Positions 18,124 to 18,468 of a DNA stretch of 64,000 bases are shown piece by piece. The notes beneath the pieces were generated by a model, which was given only the letters and a program-made list of their open reading frames with translations, made no database searches and was not told the origin of the DNA. Made by a program: the position numbers and the translations under genes. Origin of the DNA: Escherichia coli O127:H6 str. E2348/69. Lineage in GTDB: Bacteria > Pseudomonadota > Gammaproteobacteria > Enterobacterales > Enterobacteriaceae. Each line of letters begins with the position of its first letter. Positions within the stretch are counted from its first letter, which is position 1. The DNA lies in NCBI RefSeq assembly GCF_000026545.1, contig NC_011601.1; one strand, 5' to 3'.

Positions 18124-18255
18124 TGAATAAATAGATGCCCTATACTTCACCCGCCACTGGTACGCCGTTTCGATGGCCTCCCAGTCCGGTTTTGCCATGA
18201 ATTTTTCCTCTTAGTGACATTATCGAAGCCCCTTATCAAAGGAGCTTCTGTAATG

Positions 18256-18468
18256 TCAGTCCCGAACGAACGTAACCTTCGTGTTTGTCGCTCGCCGTAC
18301 AAGGCGCGCCGCTTCGCGTTGCATTTCATCGATAACTTTTGGCGTCATCGGCTGATGCGCATATTTACGTTCAATCTCTGCAAAAATCCCGTTCATCGTT
18401 TCGCTGTCTGGTGGGATAACTTTAACGTTTAATCGTGCCATTGGTTTGTGCTGCCCTGTTTTTCTCAA
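18256..18468 (-). CDS. Small hypothetical protein downstream of spanin genes
   Basis: ORF track; may start at internal MARL. Confidence 0.35.
   Translation of the reverse strand: MRKTGQHKPMARLNVKVIPPDSETMNGIFAEIERKYAHQPMTPKVIDEMQREAARLVRRATNTKVTFVRD

Follow-up and report, generated by a model that had tools for sequence, protein, structure and literature searches.

The question raised by this locus is whether a short minus-strand reading frame, which begins at position 18198 and runs into the 3′ end of a plus-strand accessory gene (here called the moron), is the remnant of a disrupted late gene or simply a spurious frame. It lies in a stretch of 64,000 nucleotides, hereafter the window, which agrees at 100% identity with E. 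coli E2348/69 (EPEC O127:H6) at ~1.57 Mb of CP059840.2, belongs to a lambdoid prophage and has its late genes on the minus strand (Table 1). The frame described in the first-pass annotation is present, and its 41-residue peptide, MAKPDWEAIETAYQWRVKYRASIYSSFEKRVVRIGFNNGYV, agrees exactly with the translation made there by hand. Since the frame occupies 18073-18198 and the moron 17575-18123, it runs over the moron stop codon (18121-18123) and terminates inside the moron, the final 51 nt of which are shared by both. The length of the frame alone is not significant, because frames of this size are frequent around it (75 of 20 aa or more overlap the surrounding 4.5 kb). RefSeq annotates no CDS at 18073-18198, and a Pfam search with the 41-aa peptide returned a sole match at the level of noise (E 0.059; 13.3 bits, where the cut-off is 25).

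Table 1. Features of the prophage late region: feature, position (in the window unless a locus is named), strand and basis.
Holin	19421-19744	-	
Lysozyme	18961-19437	-	
Rz/Rz1	18585-18977 and 18422-18766	-	
61-aa ORF, phrog_12811, last gene of lysis-side block	18256-18441	-	
Stem-loop, late-mRNA sense	18215-18258	-	Folding, covariation, covariance model
Further stem-loop copies	L003 4057-4100; L009-L011; L020-L139		
terS leader with Shine-Dalgarno sequence AAGAGG (18207-18212)	18199-18214	-	Read from sequence
HK639-type (phrog_370) terS 5′ remnant, ATG and first 40 nt	18159-18198	-	Nucleotide homology
41-aa ORF	18073-18198	-	ATG start, ORF listing and translation
Codons 14-41 of the 41-aa ORF: read-through into junction spacer, then antisense of moron 3′ end			
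Junction spacer, moron stop to clear end of remnant	18124-18158		Alignment
Moron, 182 aa, WP_000762846.1, phrog_30882	17575-18123	+	
Terminase_2 TerS (probably incoming)	17004-17555	-	Pfam, E 7.5e-40
TerL, 540 aa	15379-17001	-	
Probable exchanged block: most of terL, Terminase_2 terS, moron	15469-18158		Comparison with intact-terS prophages

The first codons of the frame are those of a small-terminase gene. Nucleotides 18159-18198 match the first 40 nt of HK639 terS (gene 01) at 97.5% identity (E 1e-9 in 2.3 Gb of phage records); the corresponding figures are 95% for the small-terminase gene in Salmonella phage SEN34 and ~98% for the beginning of terS in other E. coli prophages, where the gene is intact and encodes 249 aa. 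Beyond 18159 the similarity is weak, extending perhaps to ~18148 (codon 17), and a tblastn search of the window with intact TerS recovered residues 1-17 only, at 18198-18148. A strong Shine-Dalgarno sequence stands 8 nt ahead of the ATG, in a leader that is identical to that of the intact-terS E. coli prophages. In one class of complete E. coli genomes, a match to the window at 97-98% runs leftwards from 18480 and ends exactly at 18159. In AH19B041 (locus L003), a member of this class, the shared leader and ATG lead into a reading frame of 249 aa, with a PBSX-family TerL after it; the 249-aa protein matches the phrog_370 terminase small subunit over residues 1-248 (E 9e-95). Thus, an intact homologue of the truncated gene does exist: the arrangement of lysis genes, leader, start codon and 249-aa TerS was found in 38 of 5,426 E. 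coli genomes, and Klebsiella phages (Mulock, GZ7, ST16-OXA48phi5.2 and others) have an intact terS with a 58-nt leader at ~88% identity. The moron together with the terS stub was found in 87-90 E. coli genomes.

These matches bear directly on the idea that the ORF arose purely by chance and has no history. Frames of such length are indeed common in the region, and chance does suffice for codons 14-41, but it would also have to produce a stretch of 40 nt that differs at a single position from the exact starts of terS genes, preceded by a leader and Shine-Dalgarno sequence like those of the intact genes. We consider this scarcely credible. Of the two options left by the first-pass annotation, a spurious frame therefore describes residues 14-41 only and fails for codons 1-13, which derive from terS, whereas the remnant of a late gene was correctly suspected: a small-terminase gene has left its true ribosome-binding site (RBS), its ATG and its first 13 codons (17 at most) in place. 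A full small terminase of the phrog_370 type has an N-terminal helix-turn-helix and a C-terminal region for oligomerisation and TerL binding, spread over ~250 profile positions. The window copy has the hallmarks of an HK639-type terS start, namely the leader, the Shine-Dalgarno sequence, the ATG and first codons homologous to those of bona fide members, but with residues 1-13 (at most 17) it falls far short of a full-length phrog_370 protein. Judged by its sequence, it is a fragment of a phrog_370 terS and not a member of the family.

How, then, was the gene truncated? The first-pass annotation had proposed that a late gene was disrupted when the moron was acquired. A simple insertion, in which the moron entered and split the resident gene, would fit the fact that the remnant adjoins the 3′ end of the moron, with 35 nt between them. 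However, the other half of the gene is missing, since tblastn found no other piece of terS in the 64-kb window. Furthermore, the far side of the moron is occupied by a complete and unrelated Terminase_2 terS, and the pairing of these two genes, as found in Pantoea and Klebsiella, is older than the junction; and one has to go 2.7 kb, into terL, before homology to the intact-terS prophages returns. In a pairwise blastn comparison of the window with L003, homology was confined to 15000-15468, comprising the portal gene and the 3′-terminal 90 nt of terL, and to 18159-19419. Because of this gap, and because tblastn recovered only residues 1-17, we conclude that the block 15469-18158 took the place of the former terS body and of most of the former terL. 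The breakpoint falls within the 35-nt spacer (18124-18158), between ...TAY and QWRV... in the minus-strand frame. Insertion of the moron as the cause of the disruption is thus highly improbable, and exchange of the whole terS-terL module takes its place. We therefore interpret the 41-aa ORF as a recombination scar of a packaging-module swap, a reading to which we assign a probability of about 0.85.

According to the module-swap reading, the ancestral order would have been holin, lysozyme, Rz/Rz1, 61-aa ORF, hairpin, RBS, HK639-type terS (249 aa), PBSX-type terL and portal. A unit comprising the 540-aa terL, the Terminase_2 terS and the divergent moron, which resembles an ADP-ribosyltransferase (ART), would then have replaced everything from nucleotide 41 of terS onward to ~90 nt short of the end of terL, probably once and by illegitimate recombination. 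The RBS, ATG and 13 codons of the old terS would have survived, reading via the 35-nt spacer into the antisense of the moron as far as a chance stop codon, and any translation of the frame from the late mRNA would yield a functionless 41-aa peptide. The order of events is a reconstruction, since no exact donor/recipient pair was identified. Although minor in itself, the scar would represent a clean and datable case of a packaging-module swap in a lambdoid phage, in which a moron apparently arrived attached to a terminase gene.

The evidence for this attachment comes from the neighbourhood of the moron, whose start codon lies 19 nt from that of the Terminase_2 terS, in divergent orientation. 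Homologues of the moron with 89% aa identity (a Klebsiella contig) and 82% aa identity (Pantoea contigs) likewise face away from a Terminase_2 terS at a distance of 19-20 nt; in E. coli, Klebsiella and Pantoea alike, the moron was invariably the divergent neighbour of this gene. The Pantoea moron contigs contain no terS stub. These comparisons indicate that the moron very probably came attached to the incoming Terminase_2 terS, and that the pairing predates the junction.

No usable family was found for the moron in Pfam or PADLOC, and a tblastn search of 50,697 phage records gave no match. Its protein is predicted with high confidence to adopt an ADP-ribosyltransferase-like fold, and the predicted structure has the split beta-sheet typical of ARTs. 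The catalytic motif of ARTs is an R-S-E or H-Y-E triad, in which the catalytic Glu is invariant. In an alignment of 28 homologues of the moron, R94-G95, S151 and E156 are invariant and H150 nearly so; in the apparent E-x-E, the second Glu varies between E and Q. The same moron, stub and hairpin occur in E. coli B strains (REL606, T7Express and NEBExpress among the matches). This conserved protein with a predicted ART fold is therefore carried not only by EPEC E2348/69 but also by REL606, E. coli B and expression strains sold as derivatives of B.

According to the definition of Juhala et al. (2000), quoted in PMC3029335, a moron is an ORF that has a promoter and a terminator of its own and that occurs in one genome but not in a relative. 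The 182-aa gene resembles morons in being an opposite-strand accessory ORF between late genes. In contrast to them, it travels with terS instead of inserting by itself, and crude consensus scans of 17300-18600, which are weak evidence, returned neither promoter-like nor terminator-like sites (0 of each). In relatives, the slot of the moron contains other ORFs or, in strain DEC5E, has been lost in a deletion that also took the flanks, and no exact or clean empty site was seen.

The junction itself proved to be old. Klebsiella contig L140 matches window positions 17143-18192 at 88.2% DNA identity, is unrelated to the right of 18192, and has the identical junction and a 41-aa frame, MSKPVWDAIETAYQWRVRFRVSIYSLSEQRVIRIGFNNGYA. 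Since DNA that has diverged by 12% has the same junction, this junction is old and probably of single origin for this moron. The persistence of the frame might suggest that the ORF is a real small-protein gene, using the old terS start from the late mRNA: the strong Shine-Dalgarno sequence and the ATG are intact, and the same 41-codon frame in the 12%-diverged Klebsiella copy was called by an automatic gene caller. However, the substitutions are mostly nonsynonymous, amounting by hand count to ~6-7 nonsynonymous and 2 synonymous changes between the window and L140 over codons 1-25, which lie outside the moron overlap. That the Klebsiella frame, too, has exactly 41 open codons fits neutrality without proving it. 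In addition, the remnant variants diverge fully after residue 13, with total lengths of 41, 46 (strains A41 and CREC-544), 16 (GPT24-02) and 10 aa (IMG/VR locus L037), so that sister junctions yield unrelated peptides; residues 26-41 are set by the antisense of the moron coding sequence; and the only Pfam match is the one at noise level mentioned above.

The frame has also been deleted outright. E. coli O55:H7 DEC5E (L008 2676-2690) has a 730-bp deletion, corresponding to window positions 17581-18310, that extends from the third codon of the moron through the stub and the hairpin and takes the 18 final codons of the 61-aa ORF as well. What remains is annotated as a fused ORF of 45 aa, and the terminase genes are 99.9% identical to those of the window. 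Taken with the peptide comparisons, this makes a small-protein gene very unlikely. Since the peptide past residue 13 is unconserved among the remnant variants and shows no purifying selection, we regard it as junk, and the 41-aa frame should not be annotated as a gene. BLAST also extended the homology between the window and A41 by 17 nt into the moron; we rejected a functional common N-terminus as its source and attribute it to a diverged shared leader and six similar codons.

Directly ahead of the terS leader, the late mRNA would form a stem-loop in which an outer stem of 8 bp is separated by a CA/GA internal loop from an inner stem of 10 bp, capped by a tetraloop. The stop codon of the 61-aa ORF falls in the 5′ side of the stem-loop, and the 3′ end lies just ahead of the Shine-Dalgarno sequence. 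The calculated folding energy is -27.1 kcal/mol (z -6.4), a value that none of 200 shuffled sequences equalled, and a covariance model scored the element at 57 bits as a single occurrence in the window. Rfam 15 has no family for it: the best model, of an animal miRNA, reached 19.6 bits against a threshold of 75 (E 0.32), and a permissive Rfam scan of 17900-18500 returned noise only.

The helix is maintained by compensatory change. In Klebsiella and other E. coli copies the outer stem is kept and the inner stem is altered yet complementary, with four compensatory pairs and none broken. The pattern CATTACAG-N16-28-CGATAATG was found in at least 120 stretches of IMG/VR, 77 of which fold below -15 kcal/mol, with many distinct inner stems. 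In a 30-sequence alignment, 91.9% of cells were paired, compared with 35-49% when the partners were slid; both sides had changed in 10 of 18 pairs, and the covariation score was reached by none of 500 shuffles. Similarly, the inner helix was 98.1% paired across 83 covariance-model matches, with double changes in 8 of its 10 pairs and with U-G wobbles at one pair in 62 of the 79 distinct rows. The invariance of the outer stem in the pattern-derived sets is partly imposed by the search pattern. Compensation in the outer stem was found in sequences that had not been selected by pattern (L009-L011 and Pantoea L141), in which CATTA/TAATG is replaced by TATTG/CAATG or CATCA/TGATG. The 30-sequence seed contains 54 inner-stem cells with G-U wobbles, against 4 unpaired cells; because wobbles pair only on the sense strand, they point to a stem-loop that acts as RNA. 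A DNA palindrome bound by a protein is thought unlikely on the same counts.

In many enterobacterial temperate phages the element is located between the lysis genes and those for packaging, where it usually starts a few nt from a same-strand stop codon, ~19-28 nt ahead of the next start codon. Among the products of the upstream genes are Rz-like spanins, Rha-like regulators and small unknown proteins. Those downstream include genes for phrog_370 TerS, Terminase_2 TerS, an HNH endonuclease, a ParB-like nuclease and small unknown proteins, a range on the basis of which we rejected a pac or cos site. Some contigs contain 2-4 copies, ~310 nt apart, between small genes downstream of the lysis cassette. 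Named carriers include phiP27, the cdtI phage, Fels-1 and phi458, and the element is also present in many Klebsiella prophages and in E. coli B strains. In Klebsiella-type contigs, a conserved 47-50-aa ORF (MRTTGILMAEITLRPYMKPLLILSVLLRWGWL..., phrog_20573) often follows ~19 nt after the hairpin, with an opposite-strand ORF of ~110 aa beyond it (L107, L108, L120, L121, L123, L034, L044 and L065).

Phage T7 has intercistronic hairpins that are processed by RNase III, and T4-type phages have PeSL cassettes that combine a promoter with a stem-loop. The element at 18215-18258 is like these in having ~20 bp and an internal loop between a stop codon and the next RBS, and in being repeated between successive small genes and at mosaic boundaries. 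It is unlike them in having neither a sequence relationship to them nor an associated promoter, and its roles in cleavage and recombination are putative. Our literature search returned nothing relevant on the hairpin sequence, or on a stem-loop in the terS leader or between cistrons of lambdoid phages. We tentatively suggest, at somewhat less than even odds, that the stem-loop is an undescribed and widespread structured RNA of enterobacterial temperate phages, which processes or stabilises mRNA (for example in the manner of RNase III sites) and possibly also marks an exchange boundary. Our best guess at its role would be intercistronic mRNA processing or stability, combined with that of a conserved boundary sequence. 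As a strongly covarying motif with no Rfam family, the hairpin is the feature of this locus that most deserves further work.

Several comparisons place mosaic breakpoints at or beside the stub and the hairpin. Across prophages, the slot upstream of the Terminase_2 terS contains at least six unrelated opposite-strand ORFs (182, 151, 171, 72, 60+78 and 78 aa), and the variation starts immediately past the terS start codon. Three of these ORFs adjoin HK639-type terS stubs, with breakpoints at nt ~41, ~43 and ~50-60 of terS, and L037 provides a fourth, at nt 17. Because at least four breakpoints lie in the terS 5′ region beside unrelated opposite-strand genes, an account based on a single origin cannot cover all of the junctions; their clustering could reflect either selection or a hotspot. 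GPT24-02 (L006) has 18159-18192 at 100% identity but shares neither flank: one side carries another moron, and the other side other genes. Three E. coli carriers that we compared have no substitutions in 17371-18152 and flanks that differ by 1-2%. The ends of the hairpin coincide with two independent breakpoints: the match of Klebsiella terS modules to L003 reaches as far as its 5′ edge, and that of strain OkiPb01676 to the window stops at its 3′ edge (18217).

Since its outer sequence is conserved, the hairpin may serve as a homologous boundary for cassettes and modules. We infer that the 34-40-nt terS stub and the adjoining hairpin together act as a short homologous boundary at which lysis and packaging modules are re-assorted; the terS stub would then survive because it lies within the conserved boundary segment.

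A further possibility is that the remnant has been kept for a role in cis, either as the plus-strand terminator of the moron or, together with the hairpin, as a boundary element. An imperfect plus-strand hairpin at ~18151-18189 is followed by UUUUG, the same 5′ remnants recur beside four unrelated opposite-strand genes, and a 34-nt patch is common to phages that are otherwise unrelated on both sides. However, the plus-strand fold 3′ of the moron stop codon was no better than shuffled sequences (z -0.56), the terminator scan was empty, Pantoea relatives have the moron without the remnant, and DEC5E has deleted the remnant. Retention for a role in cis is thus unlikely, and we retain the scar of a packaging-module swap as the preferred reading of the ORF.

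Two models of phage mosaicism are useful for comparison. The illegitimate recombination model of Hendrix and colleagues, as outlined in PMC3029335, deals with the mosaic 'novel joints' of tailed phages. The joint in the window is like these in its abrupt switch of homology near a gene boundary, in the fragment of the displaced gene that was left behind and in the incoming module that keeps its function. It differs in lying 40 nt inside the displaced gene, in being old, as the 12%-diverged Klebsiella copy indicates, and in being re-used with different partners. The same source also treats, as an alternative mechanism, the conserved boundary or 'linker' sequences of modular phage evolution put forward by Susskind and Botstein. 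Like linkers, a 34-40-nt patch and a hairpin are common to phages that differ on either side, with breakpoints at the edges of both; unlike linkers, the patch in the window is a gene fragment rather than a dedicated linker, and crossovers within it are inferred. The occurrence of the stub and hairpin at mosaic breakpoints in several independent comparisons makes them a concrete test case for the idea of linker sequences.

Some minor observations concern the slot and the surrounding genes. The 19-26 nt that immediately precede the Terminase_2 terS start codon form the left edge of the slot (window 17556-17574; L004, L006, L007 and L009-L011). A promoter shared by the slot ORFs would need to be positioned antisense within the conserved 5′ coding region of terS, where our scan detected none. 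In this prophage, tRNA-Thr, tRNA-Asn and an HNH-motif protein are annotated in RefSeq between the Q antiterminator and the holin (the 19969-20144 region; L001 8988-9143). In REL606 (L013 1-3421) the prophage is rearranged just past lysC, where genes for a DUF551 protein, an excisionase and others replace lysozyme and holin.
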